Shown here piece after piece: positions 22,414 to 38,422 of a stretch of 64,000 bases of DNA. Made by a program: the position numbers and the translations under genes. The stretch covers positions 1 through 64,000 of the forward strand of contig JAVJQW010000070.1 in assembly GCA_040218735.1 (NCBI GenBank). Reading direction: 5' to 3'. This DNA is from Deltaproteobacteria bacterium (GTDB lineage Bacteria; Myxococcota; Kuafuiibacteriia; Kuafuiibacteriales; Kuafuiibacteriaceae). The notes under the pieces were generated by a model. It made no database searches, was not told where the DNA came from, and worked only from the letters and a program-made list of their open reading frames with translations. Every line of letters begins with the position of its first letter. Within the stretch, counting starts at the first letter, position 1.

Positions 22414-23051
22414 CACGCCACCTCCCGCGTCGCCTGGCTGTCGAGCTCGCTCAGCAGCACCTTCGCGAGCGTCGATGCGCCCGCGACCGCCGCGCTGACC
22501 CGCGCCGACAGGACGTTGTAGGCCACCACCGCCGGCACCGCGACGAGCAGTCCCACCGCCGTCGCGATCAGCGCCTCCGAGATCCCCGACATGACCGACC
22601 CGCTCGCCTGCGAGAGATCCCCCGACAGGTCCGCGAACGCCCGGATGATGCCGAGGACCGTCCCGAACAACCCCACGAACGGCGCGTTGCTCCCGACCGT
22701 CGCGAGGAACCCGAGCCGTCGCCCGTACCGCAGCCGCTCGTGCTCTGTCGCGCCCTCGATCAGGTGCTCGACCGCGTCCGGCCCCTTGTGGTGCGCGCGG
22801 AGCCCGAACAGGACCACGTTCGTCTCGAGCGCGTCGTGCCGCGCGAGCAGCTCCGCCGCGCGAGCGATCTGCCCGTTCTCCAGCAGCTGCGACAGCTCGC
22901 CGCGGAGCTCGTCCAGGTCCACGCGGCGACGAAAGAGGAACACCCACCGCTCGAACGCGATCGCGATCGAGGCGGCGGAGAGGCCGATCAGGAGCCAGAG
23001 CACCCATTCGGCTTCGAAGAGGGGGAGCGACATCAGTTGCGTCGTGTTCAC
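22413..23051 (-). CDS. exbB: ExbB/TolQ proton channel
   Basis: FLATVGSNAPFVGLFGTVLGII; GISEALIATAVGLLVAVPA. Confidence 0.92.
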   Translation of the reverse strand: MNTTQLMSLPLFEAEWVLWLLIGLSAASIAIAFERWVFLFRRRVDLDELRGELSQLLENGQIARAAELLARHDALETNVVLFGLRAHHKGPDAVEHLIEGATEHERLRYGRRLGFLATVGSNAPFVGLFGTVLGIIRAFADLSGDLSQASGSVMSGISEALIATAVGLLVAVPAVVAYNVLSARVSAAVAGASTLAKVLLSELDSQATREVA

Positions 23052-23056
23052 GGCCC

Positions 23057-23150
23057 TTCGAACACCGGCGCGCCCGCCAGGTGTCACCGCAATCGTCACG
23101 AATCTTTTTTTCGATCCGAGGTGACAGATCCGTCGGCCCGCGGTTTTGAA
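23057..23150. promoter_or_regulatory. Divergent pair of similar putative ECF promoters (GTGACA-N16-GT(G/T)TT..GAA)
   Basis: Plus: GTGACA-gatccgtcggcccgcg-GTTTTGAA before the sigma gene; minus: GTGACA-cctggcgggcgcgccg-GTGTTCGAA before exbB. Confidence 0.5.
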
Positions 23151-23162
23151 TCGACGGCGAGC

Positions 23163-23663
23163 GTGGAAGTCGAGGTCGAGGACTGGTACCGGCGCTTCGG
23201 ACCGATGGTGCTCCGTCGGTGCCGACGTCTGCTCGCCGACGAAGAACAGGCGGTCGACGCGATGCACGACGTTTTCGTACAGCTCCTGAGGAACGAGGAT
23301 CGGCTCGACGGCAGCGCGCCGTCGTCGCTGCTCTTTCGGATGGCCACCAACGTGTGCCTGAACAAGATCCGCACGAAGAAGCGGCACCCCGAGGACAAAC
23401 AAGCCGAGCTCCTCGACGCCCTCGCGGCGCTCGACGATCCCGAAGCCCGCACCGGTGCTGCGCGGTTCCTCAGCAACCTCTTCGGACGCGAGCAGCCCTC
23501 CACCGCGACCATCGCCGTCCTCCACCTACTGGACGGCATGACCCACGAAGAGGTCGCCGAGGTCGTGGGGCTGTCGGTCTCCGGCGTCCGCAAACGGCTG
23601 CGGGTGCTGCGCGCCAACGCCCTGACCCTCGCCGCACTCGAGGCACGAGAGGAGCGCGCATGA
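23163..23663 (+). CDS. ECF sigma factor
   Basis: AVDAMHDVFVQLL, LLFRMATNVCLN, MTHEEVAEVVGLSVSGVRKRL. Confidence 0.9.
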   Translation: MEVEVEDWYRRFGPMVLRRCRRLLADEEQAVDAMHDVFVQLLRNEDRLDGSAPSSLLFRMATNVCLNKIRTKKRHPEDKQAELLDALAALDDPEARTGAARFLSNLFGREQPSTATIAVLHLLDGMTHEEVAEVVGLSVSGVRKRLRVLRANALTLAALEAREERA

Positions 23664-24364
23664 CCGAGCCGAAGAACGACCTGTGGTACGAGCGCGTCGC
23701 GCTCGGGGAGATCACGCCGGACGAGCTGACGGCGGAGGAGCGCGAGCGCGTCGACGCCATCGTCGCCTCTAACGCCGCGATCCTCGAACACCTCCCGCCG
23801 GCCGGCGTGCGACGCGAGGTCGAGCGCCGCTCCGCCACCACACCCACGAAGAAGCGCTGGCCGCTCCTCCTCGTCCCGACCTTCGCCGCGGCGGCGGCGC
23901 TGGCGCTGGTGTTCGTCGGCGAGTCCCCCACGGAGCGCACCAAGGGCGACGCCCGCCTCGTCGTACACGAGAAGACCGCGACGGGGATCGAGCAAGTCCG
24001 CGCCGGCGACGCGCTGGAACGCGGCGCGCTCCTCCAGGTCGGCTACACGCCGGGCGGCAATGGGTATGGCGCGGTGGTTTCGATCGACGGGCGCGGCGTC
24101 GTCACGCTGCACTGGCCCGCGAGCCCCTCGGCCTGGTCACCGACGGTCGAGACGGAGGGCGGGACGCTCCCGTCCGCCTATGAGCTCGACGACGCCCCGC
24201 GCTTCGAGCGGTTCTTCCTCGTCACCTGCGCCGAGCGCTTCTTGGCGCGCGACGTCGTGGATGCGGCGGAGTCCCTCGAAGATCCCGAGGCGGGCGCCCT
24301 CGCGGTGAAGGACGGTTGCCGGACCCACAGCCTCGCGTTCAAGAAGAAGGAGCCGACCCGATGA
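23660..24364 (+). CDS. Anti-sigma-like TM protein (ActD-like/DUF4384-like periplasmic domain)
   Basis: ERVALGEI N-terminus, one TM helix, RTKG, AYELDDAPRFERFF; ATGA-coupled to the sigma gene. Confidence 0.75.
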   Translation: MTEPKNDLWYERVALGEITPDELTAEERERVDAIVASNAAILEHLPPAGVRREVERRSATTPTKKRWPLLLVPTFAAAAALALVFVGESPTERTKGDARLVVHEKTATGIEQVRAGDALERGALLQVGYTPGGNGYGAVVSIDGRGVVTLHWPASPSAWSPTVETEGGTLPSAYELDDAPRFERFFLVTCAERFLARDVVDAAESLEDPEAGALAVKDGCRTHSLAFKKKEPTR

Positions 24365-26430
24365 GCGCCACCCTCGCCTTGCTCCTCGCTCTGTCCGGCG
24401 CCGCCGACGCGGACCGCGTCGTGGTCCGCCGCTTTGCCCTGATCGCCGCGGCCAACGACGGCGGACGCGAACGTCCGCGCCTTCGCTACGCAGTCACCGA
24501 CGCACGCGCACTCGCAGGCGTGCTCGAAGAGCTCGGCGGCGTCGCGCCCGAGGACCGCGTAATGGTCGTCGAGCCGACGCGCGACGAGCTGCTCGCGAGC
24601 ATCGACGCCCTCGAAGACCGCCTGCAGGCCGCGCGCGCCGAACGTCCGGCGCGGTTGGAGCTGGTGTTCTACTACTCGGGCCACAGCGACGAGACCGGGC
24701 TGCTCCTCGGCGAGGAGGCCCTCCCCTACGGGACGCTGCGCGGGCGCCTCGACGGCCTCGCGGCGGACGTCCGCATCGCGATCCTCGACAGCTGCGCGTC
24801 CGGTGCGATCACCCGCAAGAAGGGCGGCAAGCTCCGCCCGCCGTTCCTCGTGGACCGCTCCTCTCAGGTGAAGGGCTTTGCGGTGCTCACCTCGAGCTCC
24901 GAGAACGAAGCGGCGCAGGAGTCCGACCGCATCCGCGGCTCGTTCTTCACGCACTACCTCGTGAGCGGGCTGCGCGGCGCGGCCGACGTGACGACGGACG
25001 GGCGCGTCACGTTGAACGAAGCCTACGCATTTGCGTTCCACGAGACGCTGCGCCGCACCGAGAAGACACTCGGCGGCGCGCAGCACGCGGCGTACGACAT
25101 CCAGCTCGCGGGCAGCGGCGACCTCGTGATGACCGACGTGAACGCGACGAGCGCGACGCTCGGCCTCCCCGAGTCGCTCGGCGCGCGGGTGTTCGTGCGC
25201 GACGAGCGCGGGAAGCTGGTCGCCGAGCTCGACAAACCCGGCGGCCGGCGCGTCGAGCTGGGCCTCGCGCCGGGGCAGTACGAGATCACGCTCGAGTCGA
25301 AGCGAACGTTCAGGCGGAGCGACGTCGCGCTCGTCGAGGGCAAGACGATGGAGCTCGACCCGGCCGCGATGACGCTGGTCGAGGGCGAAGAGACGTTCCT
25401 GCGCGGCGACGACGAACCCGACGACTTCGTGCTCCTCGACTTTGGCGTCCTCCCGGCGCTGTCGCTCAACGGCAACGACGCCAGACGCAAAGTCGAGAAC
25501 CACGTGATGATCAGCCTCGGCTGGGGGCACGCCTACCGCCTCTCGGGCGCCGCGCTCGCGCTGGGGGCGGCGAGCACGTCCGAGAACATGACGGGCGTGC
25601 AGCTCGCGGTCGGGGTCACGAGCGTCGGCGGCTACGCGAAGGGCGCGCAGCTCTCGGCGGGCGTGAACTACGCATCGGTGATGGACGGTTTGCAGGCGAC
25701 CGCCGGCGTCAACGTGGCGGGACGCTTCCTCGGCGCGCAGCTCACGAGCGGTGTGAACTTCGCGCAGCAGCTCACGGGCCTGCAGATGGCGGCGGGCCTC
25801 AACGTGGTCGACGAGGGGCGCGGCGCCCAGCTCGCGATCGTGAACGCGGCGCAGCGCTTCGTCGGGTTGCAGCTCGGGCTCGTGAACCTCGCCAGCCACA
25901 ACGACGGGCTGCAGCTCGGGCTGCTGAACCTGTCGGACTCGAACGACGGAGAGAGCATCGGCCTGCTCAGCTACTCGCTGGAGGACGGGATCCTGCGGCC
26001 GTCCGTCTTCAGCAGCGACGTCGGGCTCGCGAGCGTGGGCCTGTCGATCGGCACCGGCCACCTCTACACGCTGTTCTTCGCCGGCACCGGTTCGATCGCC
26101 AAGCGGGAGTCGGTGTCCTTCGGGCTCGGGCTCGGCGCGACGTTCCCGGTCGGCGAGCACTTCCGCGTCGACGTCGACGTGCGCAGTGGCACCGCGTGGG
26201 CGACGCAACAGCTCGACCGTCCCTCTCAGCTCCTCAGCACCGCGCGCGTGCGCCTGGGGTGGCGGGTGCTGCCGTGGCTCACGCTGTTCGCGGGCCCCGC
26301 GTACCACGTCGCGGTCGACTCCGAGGTCATGACGGACGAGGACCGCATCGCGCCGAGCTACGCGTGGGCCCACGGAGACGACGTGCGCTCGTGGCTGGGC
26401 GGGTCGGTCGGCGTCGAACTTTTTCGCTGA
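24361..26430 (+). CDS. Secreted caspase-family (peptidase C14) protein with Gly-Gln-Asn solenoid repeats and a C-terminal beta-barrel
   Basis: Signal peptide; catalytic FYYSGHSD and ILDSCASG; repeats GxQLxxGxN; barrel-like strands at the C-terminus. Confidence 0.85.
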   Translation: MSATLALLLALSGAADADRVVVRRFALIAAANDGGRERPRLRYAVTDARALAGVLEELGGVAPEDRVMVVEPTRDELLASIDALEDRLQAARAERPARLELVFYYSGHSDETGLLLGEEALPYGTLRGRLDGLAADVRIAILDSCASGAITRKKGGKLRPPFLVDRSSQVKGFAVLTSSSENEAAQESDRIRGSFFTHYLVSGLRGAADVTTDGRVTLNEAYAFAFHETLRRTEKTLGGAQHAAYDIQLAGSGDLVMTDVNATSATLGLPESLGARVFVRDERGKLVAELDKPGGRRVELGLAPGQYEITLESKRTFRRSDVALVEGKTMELDPAAMTLVEGEETFLRGDDEPDDFVLLDFGVLPALSLNGNDARRKVENHVMISLGWGHAYRLSGAALALGAASTSENMTGVQLAVGVTSVGGYAKGAQLSAGVNYASVMDGLQATAGVNVAGRFLGAQLTSGVNFAQQLTGLQMAAGLNVVDEGRGAQLAIVNAAQRFVGLQLGLVNLASHNDGLQLGLLNLSDSNDGESIGLLSYSLEDGILRPSVFSSDVGLASVGLSIGTGHLYTLFFAGTGSIAKRESVSFGLGLGATFPVGEHFRVDVDVRSGTAWATQQLDRPSQLLSTARVRLGWRVLPWLTLFAGPAYHVAVDSEVMTDEDRIAPSYAWAHGDDVRSWLGGSVGVELFR

Positions 26431-26532
26431 CGCGTGCATCCGTTCGCTCCTCGCCGTCGAAGGCACTGAGGGGGAGCGGTACGGCGTCCGCGCTCCTTCG
26501 ACCGAAGTGTCTCGGACGCCAAGGAGCACAGG

Positions 26533-26967
26533 ATGTCCTCGACCTCGAAGTGGCTCGCGCCACTCCTCCTCACGCTAGGGCTCGCGCCGTCGGTGTCGCT
26601 GGCGGAAACCGCATCCGACGACACATCGCAGTGCGTCGAATGCACCGACCGGACCGGAAAACACGAAGCCAACGACACGAAGGACTACTGCTGGCGCCTC
26701 GGCAACGTCCGCGAGCCCGACGCGCAGGGGCGCTGCCCCACGGGGTGGCGTAAGTCGACGATCGGCGCCGAGAGCCGGCATCAGAACCGGCACCTCGACA
26801 AGTGTGAGGTCGCGGCGGCGCTCGCGGAGCCTCCCCAGTGCGAGGCCGGGTGTGACGGCAGCGCGAGCATCACGCGACGGCGCGTTACGGCAACGAGCTG
26901 CCTCATCGAAAAGAAGCGCGACTGCGCCCCCATCGCCGCGTGTGCCAACGAGAGGAGCCCGTCGTGA
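26533..26967 (+). CDS. Secreted Cys-rich small protein
   Basis: AAGGAG RBS, signal peptide, 10 Cys. Confidence 0.7.
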   Translation: MSSTSKWLAPLLLTLGLAPSVSLAETASDDTSQCVECTDRTGKHEANDTKDYCWRLGNVREPDAQGRCPTGWRKSTIGAESRHQNRHLDKCEVAAALAEPPQCEAGCDGSASITRRRVTATSCLIEKKRDCAPIAACANERSPS

Positions 26968-27425
26968 AGATCATCACTGCATGCTGCCTTGCGCTGCTCC
27001 TCACCGCTTGCCACGTCGACCCCCAAGAGCCGGGCGCCACCGTGGACCAGGCCGTTCGATACGAGACCGAGTGCGTGGGCGCCGACTGTGACGACGTCGA
27101 AGGGTCGGCGACGTTCTGCGGAGGGGACCTCGTCTGCCATCGCCCAACCCAGGGGTACCGGCTCCCGACGGTGATGCCGAACGGACAGCGCTCCTGCCCG
27201 CCGGGCTTTGCGTTGACCCTGGTGGGTGCGCCGAACCAACGCAACCACGGCGCGTGTGACGTCGCGAGGGCGTTCGCCTGGCCGCAGCCCTGCGAGGTGG
27301 GGTGCCAGGGCGACGTTCGCCTGCCGGTCACCCCGGCCGTCGCCAACGGGTGCTGCACCTTCGACTTCACGCGCGACTGCGACCCGGCCCCCATGTGCTC
27401 CGCCGACGAGGACGAAGCCCGCTAG
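26964..27425 (+). CDS. Cys-rich lipoprotein, paralogue of the upstream gene
   Basis: GAGGAG RBS, GTGA coupling, lipobox LLLTAC; shared Cys pattern. Confidence 0.7.
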   Translation: MKIITACCLALLLTACHVDPQEPGATVDQAVRYETECVGADCDDVEGSATFCGGDLVCHRPTQGYRLPTVMPNGQRSCPPGFALTLVGAPNQRNHGACDVARAFAWPQPCEVGCQGDVRLPVTPAVANGCCTFDFTRDCDPAPMCSADEDEAR

Positions 27426-27490
27426 CAGATCGGCGGCCGAGAACACGGGTGAGGTGCCCCCACGCCCGACCCGTGTTAAACACCCGACCT

Positions 27491-28696
27491 GTGCGGCCTC
27501 GTGTGCTCGCGATCGCCCTGCTCACGCTGAGCGTCTCTGCGCCGGCGTGGGCGCAAGACGTTCCGATCGCGGCGGAGGACGACGCCGTGGAGCCCGGCTT
27601 CGAGGAGGAGAGCGCACCGCCGCCTCCGCCACCCAGACGCCGACGAAGACGGCGCCCCTCGGACTACGAGGCGGTGGACGCCTCGGATCCTGGGCGCAAC
27701 GAACAGTTCGTCGAGCTCATCAACGCCACGCGCGGGGAGATCTCCCTCGGCGAGCTGATCGAGGAGGTCCTCGCAGACGTGATGGCCGAGCTCGACCGGC
27801 GCCCCGTCCAGCGGATGTCGCCGATGGCGATCCGGGAGATCAGCCTCGGCGCCAACGTGAAGAGCAGCTATCGAAAGAAGCTCGAGGCACAGCTCGTCGC
27901 GGCGATGCACGCCGGCACCGACATCGACCTCGTCGAGTGCATCGAGTGCAAGGCGACGCGCACCCGCATCGAGGACGGCAAGTGGATCGTCACGCGCGGC
28001 CTCGTCACCACCGACCAGATGCGTGAGGCCGGCGCGCGGCTCGGGGCGAAGACGTTCCTGGACGTCGCGTTCGGGTTCGATCCGGAGAGCGGCACCGTCG
28101 AGATGAGCTTCACGGTGATCCGCGCCCGCGACGCGCAGATCATGTGGGCCGAGACGTTCCGCGCCGACGAGAGCACGCCGATGTTGATGCGCGCCTCCGA
28201 GGCGCCCGTGAAGCGCAGCGATCGCCTGCGCGACCTGGAGATGCTCCTCGAAGGGCGCCCGTTCTACGGGTACATGGCGTCGGGCGGCTTCGCGCTGCTC
28301 CCGTACGACGACCCGATGCTCGGCGACATCAGCGGCGCCACCGCGGGTTACCGGATCTACGAGCGCTTCGGCGAGGACCGCAACGTCATGTTCGGCCTCG
28401 ACCTCATGGCGTTCTTCAACCCGGATCGTCTCTCGGGCGGTATCCTCTCGGCGGGGTCGTGGTGGGTTCCGATTCGCCCGGACCTGGTGAACCCGGAGCT
28501 GCGCATCGGCGCGAAGGCGGGGGCGTTCATCGCGGGGCCGGAAGGGAACGCCGCGATCTTCCAGCTCGGCGCGGAGGTCCTGCTTCGCTATCGCTTCGGG
28601 CTCTACGCGTACGTGCTGTTCATGACGAAGTCCGCGTTCAACGACAACCACCTCGGCGGGGTCGGCTTCTCCGCGGGCATCTCGTTCAACTGGTGA
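27491..28696 (+). CDS. Outer-membrane protein with a periplasmic alpha/beta (CsgG/FlgO-like?) domain and C-terminal beta-barrel
   Basis: Signal peptide APAWA, CxxC (ECIEC), AGARLGAKTFL..IMWAETF, strands ending GISFNW. Confidence 0.7.
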   Translation: MRPRVLAIALLTLSVSAPAWAQDVPIAAEDDAVEPGFEEESAPPPPPPRRRRRRRPSDYEAVDASDPGRNEQFVELINATRGEISLGELIEEVLADVMAELDRRPVQRMSPMAIREISLGANVKSSYRKKLEAQLVAAMHAGTDIDLVECIECKATRTRIEDGKWIVTRGLVTTDQMREAGARLGAKTFLDVAFGFDPESGTVEMSFTVIRARDAQIMWAETFRADESTPMLMRASEAPVKRSDRLRDLEMLLEGRPFYGYMASGGFALLPYDDPMLGDISGATAGYRIYERFGEDRNVMFGLDLMAFFNPDRLSGGILSAGSWWVPIRPDLVNPELRIGAKAGAFIAGPEGNAAIFQLGAEVLLRYRFGLYAYVLFMTKSAFNDNHLGGVGFSAGISFNW

Positions 28697-28701
28697 CCCC
28701 C

Positions 28702-29319
28702 ATGCGTAGCGTCTCGATCCTCGCCCTGGCCCTCGCGCTGTTCGCCTGCTCCGGGAACCAGCGGACCATTCGCATCCCGGACAGCGTCGTCGCGGATCCG
28801 AAGAAGGCGAAGACCACCCAGGAGCGGGTCGCGCAGCCGTACGTCGTGAAGATGTCGGACGGTAAACGGACCTGGCAGATCGAGATCCCGGTGAACGAGG
28901 GCTCGCCGACGTTCTCAGCGGCCATCCCCCTCGACCTCGGGCAGATCGCCCAGGACCCGCCCGACATGCCGCCGACCGAGGCGGACCGCGAGGTCATCGA
29001 GGCCAAGCGCGCCGCGGGCGAGCCGATCGCGGAGCCGAAGCCGGGGGAGTCGCCCAAGGCGCAGAGTTACCTCGCGACGCTCGCGCGCGTCCGCGAGCTG
29101 TACAAACGCCGCCAGTACGAGCTGGCGCTCGTCGACCTCGTGAACCTCGATCGTCAGTACCCCGACGACGAGCGGATCCTGGCGATGAAGGGCACCCTGT
29201 ACCGAAAGCTGGGCCGACGGGACGAGGCCAAGCGCGCCTGGGAGCGCGTCCTCGCGCTCAACCCCGACAACGCCATGGTCGGGCGCGCGCTGGAGCAGCT
29301 CTTGGAGGAGACCGAATAG
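28702..29319 (+). CDS. TPR lipoprotein
   Basis: Lipobox LALFAC; TPR MKGTLYRKLGRRDEAKRAWERVLALNPDN. Confidence 0.85.
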   Translation: MRSVSILALALALFACSGNQRTIRIPDSVVADPKKAKTTQERVAQPYVVKMSDGKRTWQIEIPVNEGSPTFSAAIPLDLGQIAQDPPDMPPTEADREVIEAKRAAGEPIAEPKPGESPKAQSYLATLARVRELYKRRQYELALVDLVNLDRQYPDDERILAMKGTLYRKLGRRDEAKRAWERVLALNPDNAMVGRALEQLLEETE

Positions 29320-30117
29320 ATGCACGTCTTCGTCGGGTTCGCCGTCATCGTCTTCGCCTTCGTGGCGAGTAAGTACACCTCGGAGGCGCTCGCGTTCGGC
29401 GGGCTGCTCAACCCCCCGGCCCTCGTGCTCCTGGCGCTCGGTCCGCTCGGTGCGTCGCTGGTCGCGCACCCGTTCTCGGAGTGGAAGCGGAACCTCGCGG
29501 TGCTGCTACGGGCGTTCCGGCACGACAAACGAACGAACTTCCTCGTCGCGTCCCGCGAGATGGAAGCCATCGCGCGCGCGGTGCGTGAGTCGCGCTGGCA
29601 GGACGCCGAGGACGTCGTCGCGCGCGCCGAGTCGGAGCAGGTGAAGGCGATCGCGCCGCACCTCCTCGCGCGCCTCGAGCTCGACGCATTGCACGAGGCC
29701 ATCGCGAGCACGTCGTTCGGGTGGATGGTCGAGGTGAAGGCCGCCGACGACTTCATGCAGGGCCTCGCCCGCTTCTCTCCCGCGTTCGGGATGATCGGCA
29801 CCATCATGGGGCTGGTCGATCTGTTCAAGAACATGCGCGACAGCGCGAGCCTCGGGCCGGGCATGGCGATGGCCCTCCTCGCCACGCTGTACGGCTTGAT
29901 CCTCTGCTACATCTTCTACATGCCGCTCGCGCAGCGGATCCGCACGTACCTCGTCGCGGGCGCGCACGAGCAGCGCGTGATCGAGCGCGCGGTGAACATG
30001 ATCATCGCGGGCCGCCCGGTCGGTGAGGTGAAGACCGCGGTGCTCGACGGCGCGAGCGAGAGCAACGGACACTCGGCGGCGGCCTCGGTCGGCGCGCCGG
30101 AGCAGTCGCGAGGCTGA
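29320..30117 (+). CDS. motA: MotA/PomA-type stator subunit A
   Basis: 4 TM helices; SPAFGMIGTIMGL, LGPGMAMALLATLYG, FYMPLA; cytoplasmic R-x7-E (VRESRWQDAE). Confidence 0.88.
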   Translation: MHVFVGFAVIVFAFVASKYTSEALAFGGLLNPPALVLLALGPLGASLVAHPFSEWKRNLAVLLRAFRHDKRTNFLVASREMEAIARAVRESRWQDAEDVVARAESEQVKAIAPHLLARLELDALHEAIASTSFGWMVEVKAADDFMQGLARFSPAFGMIGTIMGLVDLFKNMRDSASLGPGMAMALLATLYGLILCYIFYMPLAQRIRTYLVAGAHEQRVIERAVNMIIAGRPVGEVKTAVLDGASESNGHSAAASVGAPEQSRG

Positions 30118-30118
30118 C

Positions 30119-30781
30119 GTGGCCAACGGTCGTGGCAGCGGTGTCGAGGCGGCGCAAGACCTCCTCGCGAAGGCGGAAGACCAGGAGGATCCGTGGCTGA
30201 TCAGCTACGCGGACCTGGTGACGAACCTCCTCGCGTTCATGGTGCTGCTGGTGTCGATGGCGGGGATCTCGTTCGAGTCGATCGAGGCGATCCCGGGCGT
30301 GTTCGCCTCCGACAAGGAGCCCGCACCGCTCAAGACGTTGTCCGCGGAGATCATGAAGCTCGCGGAAGAGGAAGGCCTGAAGGGGCGCGTCGCGACGGAC
30401 GTGGACGCCGAGGGCCTCGCGATCCAGCTCGAGGATCGCATCCTCTTCCCGTCGGGCGTCGCGTCGCTGACGTCCGAGGGTGGCGCGCTCGTCGACAAAC
30501 TCGCGCGGCTGTTCTCCAAGATGGAGGACCGCTATCGCGTCCGCGTGGAGGGGCACACCGACGACGTGCCGATCTCCACGGCGAAGTTCCGCGACAACTG
30601 GGACCTGTCCGCGGGCCGCGCGCTCGAAGTGCGCGGACGGCTCGCGTCGGCGGGGGTGGACGAGTCGCGTTTGTCGATCGTCGCGTACGCCGATCAGCGG
30701 CCGGCGAAGGTGCCGCAGGGGCTCTCGATCGACGAGGTGCGCGCGCGCAACCGGAGGGTGGTGATCCGTGTTTTCTACTGA
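30119..30781 (+). CDS. motB: MotB/PomB-type stator subunit B with OmpA-like peptidoglycan-binding domain
   Basis: WLISYADLVTNLLAF (catalytic Asp); VEGHTDDVPI..NWDLSAGRA..RARNRRVVI. Confidence 0.92.
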   Translation: MANGRGSGVEAAQDLLAKAEDQEDPWLISYADLVTNLLAFMVLLVSMAGISFESIEAIPGVFASDKEPAPLKTLSAEIMKLAEEEGLKGRVATDVDAEGLAIQLEDRILFPSGVASLTSEGGALVDKLARLFSKMEDRYRVRVEGHTDDVPISTAKFRDNWDLSAGRALEVRGRLASAGVDESRLSIVAYADQRPAKVPQGLSIDEVRARNRRVVIRVFY

Positions 30782-32453
30782 GGTCCTGATCGCGGCGCTC
30801 ATGCTCACGGCGCAGGCGTCGAGCGTCACCGTCGACTCCGTGCGAACGCAGACGCGGATGCTGCTGCAGTCGATGTGTGACGACCGCTGCGACGTCGTCG
30901 ACGTGCAGATCAAGAAGCGCCGACGCGCGCCGGTGGGAGGTGTCGAGCCGGGCTTCGACGACGCGCCGCAGCTCGCGCCGGTGCCTTCGGAGATCGCGCT
31001 GACGCTGCTGTTCGACAGTAAGATCACCAAGGCGCACCGCGCGTTCATCAGCGACCGCGTCAAACATCGCATCTCGGAGATGGGCCTGCCGGTGCTCGTC
31101 ACCGAGAACGTGCGGCCGTTCCCGGATCCGCTCCCCTTCCCCGAAGAACCGCAGCCCGCGATCCCGCCGCCGCCTCCGCCGGCTGCGCCGGTGATCGTTC
31201 AGCCGCCGGCCCCCGCGGCGCCCGCGCCGGCGCCCGTCGCGGCGAAGGCGGACCTCGAGGAGACGTTCTGGCTGGAGATGATCAAGTTCCTCCCGGTGCT
31301 GCTGATGTTCCTGCTGCTCGGGTGGTTCCTGATGCGGGTCCTGAAGCGCATGGAGAACCTCACCTACGCGCGCGGGTACGAGGAGGAGCCGGAGCACAAC
31401 CTCACGGTGACGCCGGAGGTGATCGAGGACCGCACGGGCATGCCGGTGACGGCGCAGCCGCTGCCGCCGCCGCGCTCCGACGAGCTGGTCGAGGACCTGA
31501 GGATGTACCGCGGGAGCACGCGCCGGATCTTCCGGCGGCTCCTCGTGCAGGGCGACCACGACACGGTCGCGCGGTCCGTCGCGTTGCTCGGGGACTTCGT
31601 GGTGCAGGACCTGTCGCACGACCCCGACGTGAAGAAGGCGCTCGGCGCCGCCGGCGCGAGGACGTCGGAGATCCTGCGTTCGCCGATCACCGACGAGGAG
31701 CGCGAGGATCTGCTGCGCACCGTGCAGGCCGAGCTGGTCGCGGACCGCGTCGCGAACCGCGCCGAGGACGTGCGCGAGGAGTTCGAGCAGCTGCTGGGCT
31801 GGGGCCCGGAGGCGTTCGCCGCGCTGTTGTCGCGGCTCGACGAGCGGCTGGAGGTCATCATGCTCCGCCACGCGCCGGGGCACCTCACGGAGAGCTACCT
31901 GCGCGGCATGTCGCCCTCCACGCGTGCGGCGGTGGTGCGCAAGCTCCTGGAGGCGCCTGCGGCCGAGCCCTCGGAGATCGAGGTGCTCGCGGCGGCGATC
32001 GAGACCCAAGCGCAGGCGGCGCTGGTCGGCGGCTACGAGGCCGACCACATCGTCGACCTGCTCGACTCGCTGCCGGCGTCGGAGCAGGAGTCGGTGGTCT
32101 CGGACCTGGAGTCGACCCGCCCCGACTACGTGCGGCGAAACCTCGGGCAGCTCCCGGTCGAGTCGGCGCTGCTGCGGGTCCCGGACGAGGCGCTCGCGGC
32201 GGCGTGGGCGAAGGTGCCGTTCGAGGACTGGCTCGCGTATCTGCGCGTGGCGCCCCAGGACATCCGCGCGCGTGCGCTGCACGTGTGCCCGGCGCGCCTG
32301 CGGGAGTCGGTGACCGAGGAGCTCACGCTGCGCGTCGCGGGCGACCCGGTCGCGGGGACGCGCGCGCGCCGCAAGATCATCCAGGCGGCGCTCGGCGCCG
32401 TCCCGAGCGGCGCGCTCCTCGACGCACCGCTCCAGGTCCCCGCGAAGACCTGA
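30768..32453 (+). CDS. Membrane-anchored FliG-like rotor protein with a FliF-like periplasmic domain (putative FliF-FliG fusion)
   Basis: Signal peptide, periplasmic domain ending VTENVRPF, Pro linker, TM helix, then FliG-M-like FEQLLGWGPEAFAALL.., GG hinge, FliG-C-like helices with CPARLRESVTEEL. Confidence 0.75.
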   Translation: MFSTEVLIAALMLTAQASSVTVDSVRTQTRMLLQSMCDDRCDVVDVQIKKRRRAPVGGVEPGFDDAPQLAPVPSEIALTLLFDSKITKAHRAFISDRVKHRISEMGLPVLVTENVRPFPDPLPFPEEPQPAIPPPPPPAAPVIVQPPAPAAPAPAPVAAKADLEETFWLEMIKFLPVLLMFLLLGWFLMRVLKRMENLTYARGYEEEPEHNLTVTPEVIEDRTGMPVTAQPLPPPRSDELVEDLRMYRGSTRRIFRRLLVQGDHDTVARSVALLGDFVVQDLSHDPDVKKALGAAGARTSEILRSPITDEEREDLLRTVQAELVADRVANRAEDVREEFEQLLGWGPEAFAALLSRLDERLEVIMLRHAPGHLTESYLRGMSPSTRAAVVRKLLEAPAAEPSEIEVLAAAIETQAQAALVGGYEADHIVDLLDSLPASEQESVVSDLESTRPDYVRRNLGQLPVESALLRVPDEALAAAWAKVPFEDWLAYLRVAPQDIRARALHVCPARLRESVTEELTLRVAGDPVAGTRARRKIIQAALGAVPSGALLDAPLQVPAKT

Positions 32454-32462
32454 GCGCCGACC

Positions 32463-32485
32463 GTTCGAACGTTCGAACGTTCGAA
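32463..32485. repeat. Palindromic 8-nt tandem repeat (GTTCGAAC, about 3 copies) after the FliG-like gene; possible hairpin
   Basis: gttcgaacgttcgaacgttcgaa. Confidence 0.6.
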
Positions 32486-32629
32486 GTCTCATCCCCCGGC
32501 CCTGATTTCGGCGCGCCGGCTCTCTTTTTCCCGGTCTGTGACTTTCGTTACGCGCAGGCCCGCCGATTCCAGTGACGAATGGCCCGTGACGTCACCAACC
32601 TGCGCGCCCGCGTGGTACAACAAGAGGTG

Positions 32630-33649
32630 ATGCAGCGGCTCGCACCCCTCCTGCTCCTCGCCGCCGGCTGCACGATCATCATCAAGCCCAACATCGGGGA
32701 CACGCCGGTGCCGGTGCCCATCCCGCTGGTGTGCGCGCCGAGTGAGACCGCGCCGAAGGCGCACATCATCTTCACGATGCGCGTCGAGAAGACGACGGTG
32801 AACCTCGCCGAGCACTACGGGCAGTTCATGGTGAACACCACGCTCATGCTCGCGGGGGCCGGGCTGCAGCCGACGTCCGCGGTGCTGCTGCGCGCCGACG
32901 AGCGCCCCATCCCGAACGAGGTGATGGGCGCGTGGGGCTGCGACGTCGAGGAGACGCCCGAGTCGCTCCCGCCGACGCAGGTGATTCGGCACTACGCGAT
33001 CAACGCGCCGCTCGAGCCCTCGCCGCTCGGGTGCGCGACCGACAGCGTGCTGAAGGCCGGCGCGTCGATGACCGACGTCCTCACCCAGTACCCGCCGGAG
33101 CTCGGCGGTGAAGACGGCCTGCGTGTGTTCCCGCGCGGCACGCCCGACGTCCTGTTGGTCGTCCACCTCGACGGCCTCCCGCGCCGCACCGGCCTGAACG
33201 ACACCGAGTGCGCCGAAGCCCCGAAGCTCGCGTCCGCGAGCCCCGACGGCGCCGCCGGCTGGGTGGTCTACAACGACGGCGGCATCGCGATGGACCGCGT
33301 CGTCCACTGGTTCATCGCGACCGACGAAGCGATGGACCGCGCGACGTTCGTCGAGCAGTGCCGGCGCTTCGAAGCGTTCCCGACGGACGTCCTCGACGTC
33401 CTCGAGCCCTCGCCTCGCCTTCTGTACGCGCCGATCGCGGAGCAAATCGCAGGCAACGGCGGCCACGCGACCTTCCTCCCCCTGTGCGAGATGCTCGGCG
33501 CGGACGCCGGCTTCTTCAAGGAGCAGGGCGCGCTCATCGGCGGCATCGTCGGCCTCGAGGTCGACCCGGACAAGGTCATCGAAGTCATCGAAAACGGCGG
33601 CGTCGTCCCCGAAGGTGAGATCCCCGACGGCCTCCGTCCGCCGGGCTGA
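32630..33649 (+). CDS. Hypothetical lipoprotein
   Basis: GAGGTG RBS; MQRLAPLLLLAAGC lipobox; paired Cys. Confidence 0.75.
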   Translation: MQRLAPLLLLAAGCTIIIKPNIGDTPVPVPIPLVCAPSETAPKAHIIFTMRVEKTTVNLAEHYGQFMVNTTLMLAGAGLQPTSAVLLRADERPIPNEVMGAWGCDVEETPESLPPTQVIRHYAINAPLEPSPLGCATDSVLKAGASMTDVLTQYPPELGGEDGLRVFPRGTPDVLLVVHLDGLPRRTGLNDTECAEAPKLASASPDGAAGWVVYNDGGIAMDRVVHWFIATDEAMDRATFVEQCRRFEAFPTDVLDVLEPSPRLLYAPIAEQIAGNGGHATFLPLCEMLGADAGFFKEQGALIGGIVGLEVDPDKVIEVIENGGVVPEGEIPDGLRPPG

Positions 33650-33652
33650 TTC

Positions 33653-34243
33653 GTGCCCGCCCCGAAGCGACCGCGGCGTCCGCCTCGGCGCCTCGCCCGC
33701 CGCCCCCGACGTCCGCCGCGTGAGCCCACGCGGTGGCCGCTCTTCGCGCTGCTGCTCCTCGTGCCGCTCGCGTTCTACGCCGGCCGAACGACCGCCCCCT
33801 CGCCCGAGATCCCGCCGCCGCCCGAGCCCTCGCCCGAGCCCCCCGCGCTCGCGGTCTCGACGTCGACGGCGGGCCTCTGCCCCTGCCCGAAACCGCCGCC
33901 GCCGCGGAAGCCGGCGAAGCCGAAGAAGCTCACGAAGAAGGCGCCGCCGCCCGTCGTCACGCCGGACTTCGAGCGCGCCGACCCCACGAAGGAGACGGCC
34001 GCGTACCTCAAACGCGCGAGCCGTCGCCTGGCGAAGTGCGCCCCCGCGCACGGCGCGCAGACCCGGGTGCACCTGGAGGTCACGGTCGAACCGAGCGGGA
34101 CGATCACCGTCGTTCACATCACCAACGTCGACCCGGTGCCGGGCGCGATCGCGACGTGCGTCGACCGTGAGATGAAAGCGCTCACGCCCCCCGCGTTCGA
34201 CGCGACCGAGCCCGCGACGTTCGGCCTCACCGTCGTGCTCTGA
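33653..34243 (+). CDS. TM + Pro/Lys linker + TonB-C/AgmX(GltJ)-C-like domain protein
   Basis: Basic N-terminus, TM helix, PPPPEP/KPAKPKK linker, LAKC..VHLEVTVEPSGTI..ATCV..LTPPAF. Confidence 0.7.
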   Translation: MPAPKRPRRPPRRLARRPRRPPREPTRWPLFALLLLVPLAFYAGRTTAPSPEIPPPPEPSPEPPALAVSTSTAGLCPCPKPPPPRKPAKPKKLTKKAPPPVVTPDFERADPTKETAAYLKRASRRLAKCAPAHGAQTRVHLEVTVEPSGTITVVHITNVDPVPGAIATCVDREMKALTPPAFDATEPATFGLTVVL

Positions 34244-34272
34244 GTGACGCGTCGGTGTTAGAGTCCATCGCC

Positions 34273-35892
34273 GTGCGAGCTGTCGTCGCCGCGTTGCTGC
34301 TGTCGATCACGACCGGCTGCGCCCAGGTCGCGTTCGTCGACCCCGACGCCGACCTCAAGGCGCAGCTCGTGATCGAAGAGGCCCAGCGTCTGACCGTGAC
34401 CGACGACCCGCGCGTCTACTTCTTCGTGCGCATCCGCGGGCGCGCCGGCGAGGATCTGATTCGCCTCTCCGCGTCGGGGCCGGACGGCGCGTTCGCCCTG
34501 CCCCTCGACGACGCGCTGCGCCAGGACTGCGGCGTCGGGCAGCGCTGCCTGTCGATCACGCTGCCGCCGGGCATCCCGTCGGGCCTCACCGCGCTGACGC
34601 TGGAGGCCCCCGCGATCGGGCACCGCGACACCACGCAGATCGAAGAGCGCAACCTCAACGCCTATCAGCTCGTCGCGGAGCCCCTCGCCGGCAACGAACA
34701 GGTGCGCCTGCAGATCAACGACCCGATCCGCGCGGCGTTCCCCAACACGGAGCTCGTCGACGGCGAGCGTCAGGTCGAGCTGTTCCCGCGGAAGTTCGAG
34801 ACGATCTGGCGCCCGGGCCCCTGCGGCGATCCGTTCGACGCCACCGCGGACACGTGGAAGGAGGCCGCCGCCCTCCCCGTCACGCTCTCGGCCACCTTCA
34901 GCGAGGACGAAGACCCGTCGGTCTGCCTCGGCGTCCGTCCGAACGCGCCCGACGGCGGGGACACCGTCGCGACGCGCACCGTGGGCGCCCGCGCGGTCAT
35001 CACGACGTTCGACCACACCTACGTGCCACCGACCGAATCGAGCCCGCTGGTCTACCTCACGGTGTTCAACCTGGAGCTGCCGAGCGAAGCGCGCTGCACC
35101 GAGGCGCAGGCGCAGGTGTCCGCGGCGATCCGCGACGCCGCGATCGACATCGCCGCGTCCCTGGAGGGGGCGCCGGTGCTCGAGCTGTCACCGCTCGACC
35201 TCGCGGACCTCGACGGGGAGCCGTGCCGCCAGTACGACGAGCCGTCCTTGGCCGCCGACATCCTGTTCGATCGCATCCGCGCCGACGTCGAGACGGAGTA
35301 CGGCCCGACCCGTCAGGTGCGCGCCGTGATCGTCTACGTGACGAACCTCCGTATCGAGATGCCGGAGGGGCTCTCGCAGGACTTCGCCCAGCTGAGGAAC
35401 CAGTTCGATCTGTCCGACACGATGCGCGACTTCGTCGTCGCGATCGCACCGATGGAGGCCCACGAGGGCCTCGACACCGACGAGACGCTCCCCTGGCTCG
35501 CCACCGAGGAGCCGACGTTCCGCACGTCGATCCGGAGCCTCCTCGCGACGTCGTGGCCGTTCAAGACGATGATCCACTCGCAGAACACCATCGTCCCGCT
35601 CACCGGCGAAGACGACGCGACGCGCTTTCAGTACTACCGCGTCTGCCAAGCGAGCGTCGGTGCGCTGTTCCCGCTCGGCGAGCCGCTCCCCGACGCCAAC
35701 GCGCTGATCCCGCCCCCGAGCGGGCCGGCCTACCGCGTCGACCTCCCCGGGCAGACGCTCGAGCCCGCCATCGACTATACGTCGCCGATCATCGCGTTGA
35801 GGTGGCAGGGCTGCGAGGCGCTCTGCGACCGTCCGCCCCCCTCCGCGCTCCCCGGCAACGACACGGCGTGGCTACTCCAGGAGGGGTGTTGA
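34273..35892 (+). CDS. Large hypothetical lipoprotein
   Basis: Lipobox ITTGC; long ORF, TGATG-coupled to the next gene. Confidence 0.75.
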   Translation: MRAVVAALLLSITTGCAQVAFVDPDADLKAQLVIEEAQRLTVTDDPRVYFFVRIRGRAGEDLIRLSASGPDGAFALPLDDALRQDCGVGQRCLSITLPPGIPSGLTALTLEAPAIGHRDTTQIEERNLNAYQLVAEPLAGNEQVRLQINDPIRAAFPNTELVDGERQVELFPRKFETIWRPGPCGDPFDATADTWKEAAALPVTLSATFSEDEDPSVCLGVRPNAPDGGDTVATRTVGARAVITTFDHTYVPPTESSPLVYLTVFNLELPSEARCTEAQAQVSAAIRDAAIDIAASLEGAPVLELSPLDLADLDGEPCRQYDEPSLAADILFDRIRADVETEYGPTRQVRAVIVYVTNLRIEMPEGLSQDFAQLRNQFDLSDTMRDFVVAIAPMEAHEGLDTDETLPWLATEEPTFRTSIRSLLATSWPFKTMIHSQNTIVPLTGEDDATRFQYYRVCQASVGALFPLGEPLPDANALIPPPSGPAYRVDLPGQTLEPAIDYTSPIIALRWQGCEALCDRPPPSALPGNDTAWLLQEGC

Positions 35893-36557
35893 TGCGGGGG
35901 GTGATCGTCGCGGGTGTCACGCTCCTCGCGTCGACGGCGTCGGCCGCACCGCCGCCCGTGCCCTGGGAGGTGACCGGCACGTCGTCGACCGCGGCGGTCT
36001 CGGTGGAGCCGGACACCGCGCACCGTGTCGAGCGTCGTTTCTTCGAGAAGCAGGATCACTTCCTGGTGAAGACCGGCTTTTCGTACCTGTCGCGGGGGGA
36101 CTTCTATTCGAACCCCGGCGTCTCGATCGATCTGTCCTGGTACCCGCTGGAGTTCTTCGCGATCGACTTCGTGTCCTCGACGATCTTCTTCTCGCAGCTC
36201 AACAACACCGCCACCGAGCTCCGCGAGACGTTCGGTCTGCTTCCCGACAGCCAGAAGCCATACGCACGCGTGACGGCAGGCGGGCGGTTTGCGTTTGCCT
36301 ACGGCAAGGTCCTCATCGAGGAGCTCGGCGAAGTCGTCCACCTCGACGCGAGCGTCGGACTCCACCTCGGCGTCCTCGCGACCGACCGCGCGGTGAACCT
36401 CGGCGGCGACACCGGCCTCACGTTCCAGGCCGCTGTGTTCGAGCGGTTCGTGGTGTGGTTCGACTTCTCGTGGTTCCTCAGCTTCGAGGAGCGCTCCGAC
36501 GAAGGGACCGTCGCGTCCGGCCCGATGGGCACGGTGGGGTTGGGTCTGAAGCTTTGA
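35892..36557 (+). CDS. Outer-membrane beta-barrel protein resembling myxobacterial GltA/B/H-type barrels
   Basis: Signal peptide; VERRFFEKQDHF, DFYSNP, FAFAYGK motifs. Confidence 0.7.
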   Translation: MRGVIVAGVTLLASTASAAPPPVPWEVTGTSSTAAVSVEPDTAHRVERRFFEKQDHFLVKTGFSYLSRGDFYSNPGVSIDLSWYPLEFFAIDFVSSTIFFSQLNNTATELRETFGLLPDSQKPYARVTAGGRFAFAYGKVLIEELGEVVHLDASVGLHLGVLATDRAVNLGGDTGLTFQAAVFERFVVWFDFSWFLSFEERSDEGTVASGPMGTVGLGLKL

Positions 36558-38422
36558 TCGCGTTGTGGGTCACGCTCGTAGCCGCGAGCCCGGTCGGCGG
36601 CGTGAGCACACCGACCGACGACGTCACGGTCGTGGAGCGCTTCCTCGCCGGGGATCTCGTCACGCTCCGCCGGGCCACCGTGTTGCGCGCGGCGGCCGGA
36701 GAGCGCGTGGACGTGGGGCTCCTCGCGCTCCTCAACGACTACGCGCGGCTCGTGCGCTGTCGCCCGATCGATCCCCTGCCCGCGGACGAACGTGAGCCGT
36801 ACCGGACCGTGCGCAAGCTCGTGCGGTTGGAGCGCGTGCGGCTCGAACGCCTCGTCCGCGACCGCGCGCACCGCGGCTCGACGCTCGTGCACCTGCTGGG
36901 GCCCGAGCGGCTCTATCAGCTCGCCGAGGCCGAGGACCGGCGCGTGATTCGGTGGCCGATCGAAGCCGAGACCTGGCCCGGAGAGATCCTCGCGCCGACC
37001 TCCGCGGAGCCCGACTGCCCCTCGATCGCCGGTGGGAAGAAGGAGCGCCCGGAGGCGGTGCACCGGGAGCACCGCCGGCTCCGCATCAACGCGGAGCGGA
37101 GCGGCGTGGCCGACCTGCTCGACCACTTCGACCAGCTCCCCGATCGCACCGCGTCGCGCGTCGCGCTGACGTACCTCGCCGACGCCGAGGGGGTGGCGGG
37201 GTTCGCGATCAACGCGCGCTGGCGGCGCGTGCTGGAGGCGACCGTGGCGCGGAGCCCGGACGACGTGCGTCCCGCCGCGCGGTTGTTACTCGCGAAGATC
37301 GCAGAGCGCAGTAACGACGGCGCGGAGGTGGAGCGCCTCTATCGCGCGTTGCTCGCGGACCCCGCCCGGAGCGCCGCGCAGGACAGCCGCGCGCGGGTGC
37401 GTCTGGTTAAACGACTCGAGCCGCAGTGGACGGCGATCCTCGACGTCATCCGCGGCGCCGAGAAGATCCGGCCGGCGGACGAACCGGTGCTGATCAACGC
37501 GGAGGCGCGTGCGCTCTACAGTCTGGGGGAGACGGAGCAGCTCATGACGCTCGGCCGACGCCTCGTGCAGCGTGAGGATCTATGGCGGGGAGCGAACGAC
37601 GGACAGCTCGGGCCGTTCATCCTGCAGACCAACGAGCTGCTCACGCTCCTCGCGCTGGACCTGTCGCCGTCGCGCGCGATCGCGTGGCTGGACGAGATCG
37701 CGATCGCCGGAGACGAAGCGCGGTCGGAGCGGCTGGAGCAGCTCGCGGAGCGCGCGCGCGAGCGTCGGGACTTCGAGCTCGCCGTGGCGCTGTACGATCG
37801 GCGCCGAGCCGAGGTCCTCGAAGGCCTCACGCGGCGCGGCCCCCGCGCGGCGGCGAAGGACGCGGAGCTGATCGGGCGGCGTGCGTATATCGAGTACGAC
37901 CGCGAGGACGTCGAGGCGTTCGCGGGGTTCGTCGACGCGCTGGTCGGGCTCGCGACCACCGAGCAGGGACGACCGATCGCGAGGTACGCGCCGCACAAGG
38001 CGATCGCGCGGCTGACACAGGACCTCCTCGGGCGCCTCACCGACGACGTGAAGGATGATCCAGAACGTGAGAAGTTCGCTGCGGTTCTGCTCGACGCGGG
38101 CACGAAGCTCACGGTGCAGCCGTCGCGCTATCGGCGCGTGCTGGAGCGCTTCCAACCGGACCTGATTCGCCTCGCAGGGAAGTGGGCCCAGGGCCGCGTC
38201 GCGAAGCCGGACGCGAAGAAGACCAAACGCAAGAAGGCCAAGCCGGTGAAGCAGCTCGGGCAGGTCGTGGTGCAGCGCCTCCCGCCGAGCCTCGAAGCCC
38301 CGGACCACGCGACGCCCGTGCCTGCGGTCGCGACGTTCCTCATGTACCCGACCCCCGAGGGCGCGTGGCGTGAAGGTGCGCCGTGGATGTCGCTCGTGCC
38401 CAAGAAGAAGAAGTCGAGGTGA
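36554..38422 (+). CDS. Exported all-helical/TPR-like protein
   Basis: TTG start overlapping the upstream TGA, signal-like N-terminus, TPR-like helices. Confidence 0.65.
   Translation: MIALWVTLVAASPVGGVSTPTDDVTVVERFLAGDLVTLRRATVLRAAAGERVDVGLLALLNDYARLVRCRPIDPLPADEREPYRTVRKLVRLERVRLERLVRDRAHRGSTLVHLLGPERLYQLAEAEDRRVIRWPIEAETWPGEILAPTSAEPDCPSIAGGKKERPEAVHREHRRLRINAERSGVADLLDHFDQLPDRTASRVALTYLADAEGVAGFAINARWRRVLEATVARSPDDVRPAARLLLAKIAERSNDGAEVERLYRALLADPARSAAQDSRARVRLVKRLEPQWTAILDVIRGAEKIRPADEPVLINAEARALYSLGETEQLMTLGRRLVQREDLWRGANDGQLGPFILQTNELLTLLALDLSPSRAIAWLDEIAIAGDEARSERLEQLAERARERRDFELAVALYDRRRAEVLEGLTRRGPRAAAKDAELIGRRAYIEYDREDVEAFAGFVDALVGLATTEQGRPIARYAPHKAIARLTQDLLGRLTDDVKDDPEREKFAAVLLDAGTKLTVQPSRYRRVLERFQPDLIRLAGKWAQGRVAKPDAKKTKRKKAKPVKQLGQVVVQRLPPSLEAPDHATPVPAVATFLMYPTPEGAWREGAPWMSLVPKKKKSR

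Follow-up and report, generated by a model that had tools for sequence, protein, structure and literature searches.

The locus and its stator genes

The window analyzed here, a stretch of 64,000 nucleotides (nt), corresponds to positions 1-64000 of contig C61 in a myxococcotal genome of 11.6 Mb (70 contigs, ~70% GC). Near its center lies a gene cluster, referred to below as the module, in which a flagellar-type MotA/MotB stator is encoded between proteins of the outer membrane (OM) side and a 561-amino acid (aa) membrane protein, g5, with a region resembling the flagellar protein FliG. The first-pass annotation described g1 through g5 as a tightly coupled five-gene run, and this description is sound: g1, g2, motA, and motB are separated by 5, 0, and 1 nt, motB and g5 overlap by 14 nt, and all five open reading frames (ORFs) display the third-codon-position GC (GC3) pattern of genuine genes. 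The features of the cluster are as follows.

g1, 27491-28696, + strand: secreted OM protein with a barrel and an LpoB-like domain
g2, 28702-29319, + strand: tetratricopeptide repeat (TPR) lipoprotein, lipobox LFAC
motA, 29320-30117, + strand: MotA-type stator A subunit, 265 aa
motB, 30119-30781, + strand: MotB-type stator B subunit, 220 aa
g5, 30768-32453, + strand: 561-aa bitopic protein with a FliG-like cytoplasmic region
Three tandem copies of CGTTCGAA, 32462-32485, no strand: read from the sequence
g6, 32579-33649, + strand: 356-aa Cys-rich lipoprotein, lipobox AAGC
g7, 33653-34243, + strand: 196-aa protein of TonB/AgmX-like architecture
g8, 34255-35892, + strand: 545-aa Cys-rich lipoprotein, lipobox TTGC

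Five genes do not make up the whole unit: g6 is a constant member, joined in near relatives by g7 and g8. These three genes are tightly packed after the 125-nt gap between g5 and g6, which is the sole sizeable gap of the cluster. Just 3' of the g5 stop codon lie three exact tandem copies of CGTTCGAA, a palindrome-containing octamer. Across 26400-36600, no promoter-like sites were found; terminator-like sites did not exceed their frequency in shuffled sequence, and those on the plus strand occur only 3' of g8.

Is the stator of the flagellar type? MotA matches PF01618 at 63.5 bits (cut-off 22.9), and the two prolines already recognized in the motifs SPAFG and YMPLA (P154 and P202; P173 and P222 in E. 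coli) are invariant in 13/13 aligned MotAs. MotB consists of a transmembrane (TM) helix bearing Asp32 (motif ISYADL; D32 in E. coli), a plug (MotB_plug, 39.8 bits; Pfam cut-off 24), and an OmpA-like peptidoglycan-binding domain (54 bits; cut-off 27.2). As predicted, both the catalytic Asp, kept in 14/14 sequences, and the peptidoglycan-binding domain are in place. When MotA was compared to PDB sequences with phmmer, the best matches were the flagellar MotAs 8ucs, 6ysf, and 8gqy (E ~1e-17); flagellar MotA and PomA range from 1e-17 to 1e-10, while ExbB reaches only 5e-3. The best NCBIfam models for both subunits are likewise flagellar motor proteins, all under cut-off: MotA scores 79.2 bits at best against a flagellar cut-off of 237, and MotB 129.4 against 283, with MotD, MotB, and MotS as its top models.

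A quick tree was built from the 20 MotA/ExbB-family paralogues of the genome and 10 module orthologues, with a midpoint root for drawing only. A branch with a Shimodaira-Hasegawa-like approximate likelihood ratio test (SH-aLRT) value of 99 separates the module MotAs, the canonical MotA of contig C66, and a third MotA on contig C23 from 17 Exb/Tol-like paralogues. The tree gives no resolved order within the MotA side, and leaves placement inside or beside the FIT (flagellar stator) clade unsettled. In the available text of PMC12505986, a plug with its linker and an OmpA-like domain distinguish FIT B subunits from those of generic ion transporters. Judged by sequence, the module stator is closer to flagellar MotA/PomA than to ExbB/TolQ; the PDB matches, the plug and OmpA domains of MotB, and the SH-aLRT split all agree with the flagellar-type stator first proposed for this locus.

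The FliG-like partner and the envelope proteins

The AlphaFold2 (AF2) model of g5, computed from a 38-row alignment, has a mean predicted local distance difference test (pLDDT) score of 82.4. An N-terminal hydrophobic helix, a signal peptide, is followed by an alpha-beta-beta-alpha-beta domain (residues 22-116, pLDDT >90) with conserved CxxxC and PGF motifs, a disordered Pro-rich linker of ~45 residues (117-160), a TM helix (163-200), a further disordered linker, and an all-helical FliG-like region (237-544). The TM helix is flanked by acidic residues on its N-terminal side and by basic ones on its C-terminal side; from these flanks and the CxxxC motif, the N-terminal domain is predicted to be periplasmic and the helical region cytoplasmic. 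With its signal peptide, periplasmic domain, and TM helix, the modeled g5 is not a soluble cytoplasmic protein held by the C-terminus of FliF.

The proposal that the C-terminal part of the 561-aa protein is FliG-like is supported. In a Foldseek search with the g5 model, the first 13 PDB matches are all FliG (best E 3e-5), and Pfam detects FliG_C at 31.8 bits (cut-off 23.3). VIA superimposes g5 336-550 on FliG 104-322 with Z of 11.7-12.6 across FliG chains, pairs g5 262-547 with FliG 5-318 in one further alignment, and aligns 87/88 residues of the MotAB-bound FliG_C (8ucs_H) at Z 10.4 and a root-mean-square deviation (rmsd) of 2.6 Å, on a scale where helical repeats may reach Z ~13 through arrangement alone. 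Because of this inflation, the fold assignment rests on the consistency of the top matches, the Pfam FliG_C match, and the profiles of distant g5 relatives, which are above cut-off for FliG_M in 5/8 and for FliG_C in 6/8; g5 itself has no Pfam match to FliG_N or FliG_M.

Does g5 carry the residues through which FliG meets its stator? In E. coli, FliG R281, D288, and D289 are the partners of MotA E98 and R90, according to the accessible part of PMC12505986. In three alignments, by BLASTP (pair E 0.006), by hhalign, and to the Pfam model, g5 R510, E517, and E518 fall on the corresponding R/D/D of the FliG encoded in the same genome. Glu518 is never replaced in 21/21 sequences from three clades, MotA Arg89 is never replaced in 19/19 module MotAs, and no sequence of the 38-row near family departs from R510. 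The MotA motif VRESRWQDAE is present, with an acidic residue at +8 in 5/6 near orthologues. By alignment, the conserved charge pair is the one matching MotA R90 and FliG D289. A predicted complex of two MotA copies with g5 440-555 scored 0.01 against a mark of 0.32, with no controls folded, and counts neither way.

FliG and MgtE N-domains are related folds, and on g5 the Pfam MgtE_N match (32.9 bits) stands slightly above that of FliG_C. Moreover, conservation across the wider g5 family peaks in the periplasmic domain (C37, C41, P61, G62, F63, and D83) and not in the cytoplasmic part. Both observations would suit a g5 that regulates or scaffolds the MotAB channel, its MgtE_N/FliG-like helical repeats sensing a cytoplasmic signal, for example Mg2+ or a nucleotide, and gating or localizing a stator that works via MotB or the periplasmic partners. 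The structural matches of g5, however, are to the FliG M and C domains and not to MgtE, the cytoplasmic residue kept in 21/21 sequences aligns with D289 of the FliG torque helix, and the distant relatives score above cut-off for FliG_M in 5/8 and for FliG_C in 6/8. We regard this regulatory role as rather unlikely.

What lies on the other side of the periplasm? Structure searches and Pfam bear out the reading of g1 as an OM barrel and g2 as a TPR lipoprotein. From N- to C-terminus, the AF2 model of g1 (pLDDT 72.5, 9 sequences) shows a low-complexity stretch, an LpoB-like periplasmic domain (~86-233) in which a CxEC motif is invariant, and an 8-strand beta-barrel (257-401) ending in an invariant Trp. 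A wide VIA search matched the barrel to NspA (Z 17.1), OmpW (16.3), and the OprF barrel (16.2), and the periplasmic domain aligns with the LpoB C-domain 4q6l_A (Z 11.9, rmsd 3.5, 129 residues aligned). There is no Pfam (E up to 10) or NCBIfam match to g1; its Atlas neighbors carry LpoB, CsgG, or TolB_N and are commonest in Myxococcota and Bdellovibrionota. The C-terminal TPR repeats of g2 are above cut-off (TPR_2, 30.7 bits; TPR_1, 29.7 bits), and g2 adjoins g1 and motA in every locus extending that far.

Downstream, g6 yields no Pfam (E up to 10) or NCBIfam match and no usable Atlas match; tblastn synteny places it 3' of g5 in near and distant loci alike. The g7 protein starts with an Arg-rich segment, followed by a TM helix and a Pro-rich spacer, and its C-terminal domain carries two conserved Cys. 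Its matches to the AgmX/PglI C-terminal model (15.3 bits, cut-off 40) and to tonB_Cterm (13.4 bits, cut-off 27.1) are weak; with neither TonB_C nor AgmX/PglI above cut-off, the likeness is one of architecture only. Homologues of g7 were found only in near relatives and one distant locus. No Pfam (E up to 10) or NCBIfam match was obtained for g8, whose homologues are located downstream in the near loci and, in 3/6 distant genome loci, a few kb 5' of the module.

Distribution and independence from the flagellum

Using a g5 profile, we surveyed 301 genomes sampled across Myxococcota and detected g5 in 20: 8/20 genomes of the window's family, 9/115 of family f9, and 3/7 of family f30. Several of these carriers are complete single-contig genomes. 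Among genome loci of sufficient length, the order g1-g2-motA-motB-g5-g6 recurs in all six distant ones and in every near one; the cluster is conserved as a unit, as the first-pass annotation required. A profile search of 1.84 billion representatives returned 320 proteins at E <= 1e-3, 108 at E <= 1e-10, and 41 at E <= 1e-30, many of them matching end to end at 540-620 aa and others, of 720-850 aa, carrying extra N-terminal length. A metagenome scan, with a narrower distant-clade alignment as the query, added 12 loci. Here motB lies directly 5' of g5 in 11/12, the twelfth locus starting at g5, and motA was found in nine, g1 in seven, and g6 in six of the 12. The missing genes mostly fall beyond contig ends; L037 and L038 each have ~1.5 kb downstream of g5 without a g6 match. 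Overall, the six-gene order is kept at 20-45% protein identity and at a GC content, spanned by the metagenome loci, of 0.37-0.74. At L009:4669-5851, in the locus of one relative, the g1 orthologue was matched in two pieces overlapping by a few bases, which suggests a frameshift or an assembly error.

Such conservation bears on whether the module is simply what is left of a decaying ancestral flagellum, its genes now functionless where the flagellum is absent. The phylum does include both flagellated and non-flagellated members. Yet the frames are open, the MotB Asp (14/14), MotA R89 (19/19), and the two prolines (13/13) are intact, gene order has outlasted wide divergence in sequence and base composition, and the partners in the module are not flagellar proteins. 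This explanation is very unlikely.

Does the source genome have a flagellum of its own? Its flagellar gene set is complete-looking: C59 (~374-410 kb) encodes FlgB/C, FliF, FliG (FliG_C, 138 bits), FliH, FliI, FlgE, FliM, and FlhA, and C41 (352-357 kb) encodes two flagellins. The window contains no FliM, Flagellin_N, FHIPEP, or, beyond g5, FliG_C match, rod and hook families not having been scanned. The first-pass annotation drew its case for a non-flagellar machine from such an absence. This is no argument, because the genome has a full flagellar system elsewhere; the independence itself stands on comparative grounds, in carriers that are without flagellar markers. Along with the full system, the survey of the genome for flagellar genes revealed a separate PomA-like MotA/MotB pair on C66 (131-132.6 kb). 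The C66 MotA scores 270 bits on the PomA model (cut-off 341), compared to 79 for the module MotA on its own best model, and is the better candidate for the flagellar stator.

Among the 20 module carriers, five have full-length FliM and 15 do not; these FliM tallies include one genome flagged as unpublished (G195), on which no claim rests. Four carriers that are 97-100% complete, G217, G188, G110, and G266, have no FliG_N, Flagellin_N, or full-length FliM. No FHIPEP gene was found in G188 and G266, which are therefore without any type III export gate. In these four genomes and in G204, the module MotB is the sole MotB_plug match (of these five, FliG_N and Flagellin_N were searched in the first four). 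Conversely, full FliM without the module is seen in eight genomes of the window's family. As the module occurs in genomes without flagellar markers, its independence of the flagellum holds, and on comparative grounds it is placed outside the flagellum and any type III secretion system (T3SS).

The complete-looking flagellar set of the source genome, together with the 5/20 carriers that have full-length FliM, could also be taken to mean that the module supplies accessory flagellar parts, namely an alternative stator and a FliG paralogue for the genome's own flagellum, much as some bacteria use several sets of stators. Predatory Bdellovibrio and like organisms (BALO) are reported in the available text of PMC11323537 to have 1-4 motAB pairs, and Bdellovibrionota, along with Myxococcota, is where the Atlas neighbors of g1 are commonest. 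This explanation has to contend with the carriers that have no FliG_N, flagellin, or full FliM, two of which also have no FHIPEP, and with the absence of the module from the eight flagellated genomes of the window's family. In the loci read, the module never adjoins flagellar genes; it is always accompanied by OM proteins without a flagellar counterpart; and g5 is membrane-anchored, with no visible EHPQR motif. We consider an accessory flagellar role decidedly improbable.

Weak FliM-family matches (E ~1e-12, profile positions ~27-185) are widespread in the phylum: they occur in 104/115 genomes of the largest sampled family, in open frames of ~420-560 aa, some longer, and also in the source genome at C23:303504-304010. 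Such matches could represent SctQ-like components of T3SS other than the flagellar one. The source genome has seven FHIPEP (FlhA/SctV) matches, six of them full length (C23:323 kb, C59:396 kb, C41:146 kb, C70:144 kb, C38:16 kb, C9:331 kb, and C16:73 kb). This number implies that, the flagellum aside, the genome encodes several systems resembling type III secretion.

Other stator-like genes lie near the module and elsewhere in the genome. On the minus strand upstream of the module, 22413-23525 encodes a 370-aa MotA_ExbB-family protein (110 bits) and 17343-20537 a 1064-aa TonB-dependent receptor with a TonB_C segment near its N-terminus; the two belong to a separate Ton-type system. Between these genes and the module, 24316-26430 (+ strand) encodes a 704-aa protein that combines a caspase (Peptidase_C14) domain with an LA_2272-type surface repeat. 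The third MotA/MotB pair, at ~398.0-403.2 kb of C23 (L005:6026-11214), has a plug and an OmpA domain in MotB and is followed by genes for two proteins, of 597 and 680 aa, that belong to no family; the shorter has only a weak MgtE_N match (E 0.0085). As a candidate g5 relative, the 597-aa protein was rejected, having no BLAST similarity to g5 and being unmatched by the g5 profile in its own genome. The C23 pair is possibly a further stator that has a partner of its own.

Mechanism and relation to known systems

What could a flagellar-type stator do beside a membrane-anchored FliG-like protein? Because the cluster also occurs in bacteria without a flagellum, it probably powers an undescribed envelope machine. 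On balance, we think it fairly likely that the stator acts on g5 and that the two form part of a stand-alone envelope module independent of the flagellum. We infer the MotA-g5 contact, the oligomeric state, the movement, and the cellular task. The flagellar-type MotA/MotB, presumably in the 5:2 stoichiometry of its homologues, would be held to peptidoglycan by MotB while ions pass MotB Asp32. Its cytoplasmic face would act on the FliG_C-like domain of g5 via the flagellar-type charge pair, MotA Arg89 facing g5 Glu517/Glu518, joined in close relatives by a pair of MotA Glu97 and g5 Arg510. Being self-anchored in the inner membrane, g5 would need no FliF, and its periplasmic N-domain, on a Pro-rich tether of ~45 residues, would be placed to reach g1, g2, and g6. 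Ion flow would thereby be converted into movement of g5, as rotation of a g5 ring or displacement of g5 units, and passed on to the OM. Candidate tasks are surface motility, OM or cell-wall handling, and secretion.

Several observations weigh against a stator acting on g5 in this manner. In a six-frame search of the genome, FliG_C on g5 reached 22.8 bits, just below the cut-off, and hhalign gave the alignment of g5 with the FliG of its own genome a probability of only 10%. In other clades, the acidic residue of MotA lies at +6, +9, or +13, where the loop alignment is uncertain. Since this offset appears to vary outside the near clade, the R-x7-E spacing is probably no general feature of the family; of the motif singled out in the first-pass annotation, VRESRWQDAE and the constant R89 remain, but the exact spacing does not seem to be kept beyond close relatives. 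Further out, g5 R510 becomes S or K, or an Arg lies 2-4 residues later, in several clades. The EHPQR FliM-binding motif is not visible in g5, the aligned place reading LDER in the low-probability hhalign alignment, and this makes a C-ring-like assembly unlikely. Of the FliF-like part ascribed to g5, what is seen is an alpha-beta-beta-alpha-beta domain whose topology fits a ring-building motif: residues 1-200 have no YscJ_FliF match in Pfam, and the periplasmic domain aligns with ring-building motif 3 (RBM3) of FliF at Z 9.2-9.4 and rmsd 4-7 Å, no better than with the C-terminal domains of cation diffusion facilitator (CDF) transporters (VIA Z ~10, rmsd ~2 Å). As the CDF domains fit slightly better and the alpha-beta-beta-alpha-beta fold is common, "FliF-like" describes a topological resemblance only. 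Finally, G112 carries the module and has no full FliM, yet flagellin and FliG_N are present; FliM alone therefore misclassifies genomes as non-flagellated.

A more specific form of the proposal is an autonomous rotary motor, in which a ring of self-anchored FliF/FliG-like g5 is turned by flagellar-type stators and drives a periplasm-spanning, OM-linked assembly in bacteria devoid of both flagellum and type III export gate. This is possible, though doubtful. Were it so, the module would represent either a sister of the flagellar motor core or its surviving precursor, and the MotA-FliG torque interface would exist, and perhaps have arisen, apart from secretion and filament.

Why does the module merit attention whether or not it rotates? 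We found no published description of a module uniting MotAB with a membrane-anchored FliG-like protein; the supplementary stator lists of PMC12505986 and PMC11323537 may hold such pairs. If the proposed stator-g5 coupling is correct, a conserved stator with a FliG-fold partner and the key charge pair, occurring without flagella or type III export, would constitute a further class of stator-driven machine. A stator-plus-FliG unit working in the absence of an export apparatus would make the origin of the flagellar motor core, a long-standing question, testable. The single-contig carriers would make genetics and cryo-tomography feasible if cultured strains exist.

The closest known system is the flagellar MotA5B2/FliG motor (8ucs). 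Shared features are a stator with a plug, an OmpA-like anchor, a TM Asp, and two prolines, the FliG M and C fold, and, by alignment, a MotA Arg and a g5 Glu at the R90 and D289 places. In contrast to the flagellar motor, the module occurs without FliF, FliM/N, rod, hook, filament, or export gate; its partner is membrane-integral, has a periplasmic domain of its own, and shows no EHPQR; it is linked to OM proteins; and it falls below all NCBIfam flagellar equivalog cut-offs. To our knowledge, all uses of the MotA-FliG torque interface are flagellar, and the other ion-driven 5:2 motors known to us (Ton, Tol, Agl, Gld, and Zor) engage quite different partners.

FliF-FliG fusions, engineered or mutant, have been used for the study of the membrane-supramembrane (MS) and cytoplasmic (C) rings (accessible portions of PMC10941966 and PMC11481574). 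As in g5, one chain there runs from a periplasmic alpha/beta domain through a TM helix to a cytoplasmic FliG-like region, but g5 is a natural protein, and where the fusions carry three ring-building motifs it has one small periplasmic domain on a long Pro-rich tether. A YscJ_FliF match in Pfam is a further feature that g5 does not share.

Like the Ton and Tol systems and the Agl-Glt and Nfs systems of Myxococcus, the module joins an inner-membrane ion motor to a Pro-rich periplasm-spanning protein, TPR lipoproteins, and small OM barrels, elements of which the Glt and Nfs systems are composed, and g7 has the architecture of TonB and AgmX. No module protein matched a Glt or Nfs family in the NCBIfam scans. 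Unlike ExbBD and TolQR, the motor is of the MotAB type with a plug and an OmpA-like anchor, and, unlike in Ton, Tol, and Agl, the driven protein would engage it on the cytoplasmic face via a FliG-like domain and not through a TM helix within the motor. GldLM/PorLM of the type IX secretion system (T9SS) and ZorAB of the Zorya defense system, likewise non-flagellar 5:2 motors, have no FliG-like partner and differ in their A subunits (ZorA is long and has a tail). What they have in common with the module is the non-flagellar use of a stator-like, ion-driven complex; PMC13104615 describes GldL as similar to MotAB stator units but not homologous with them.

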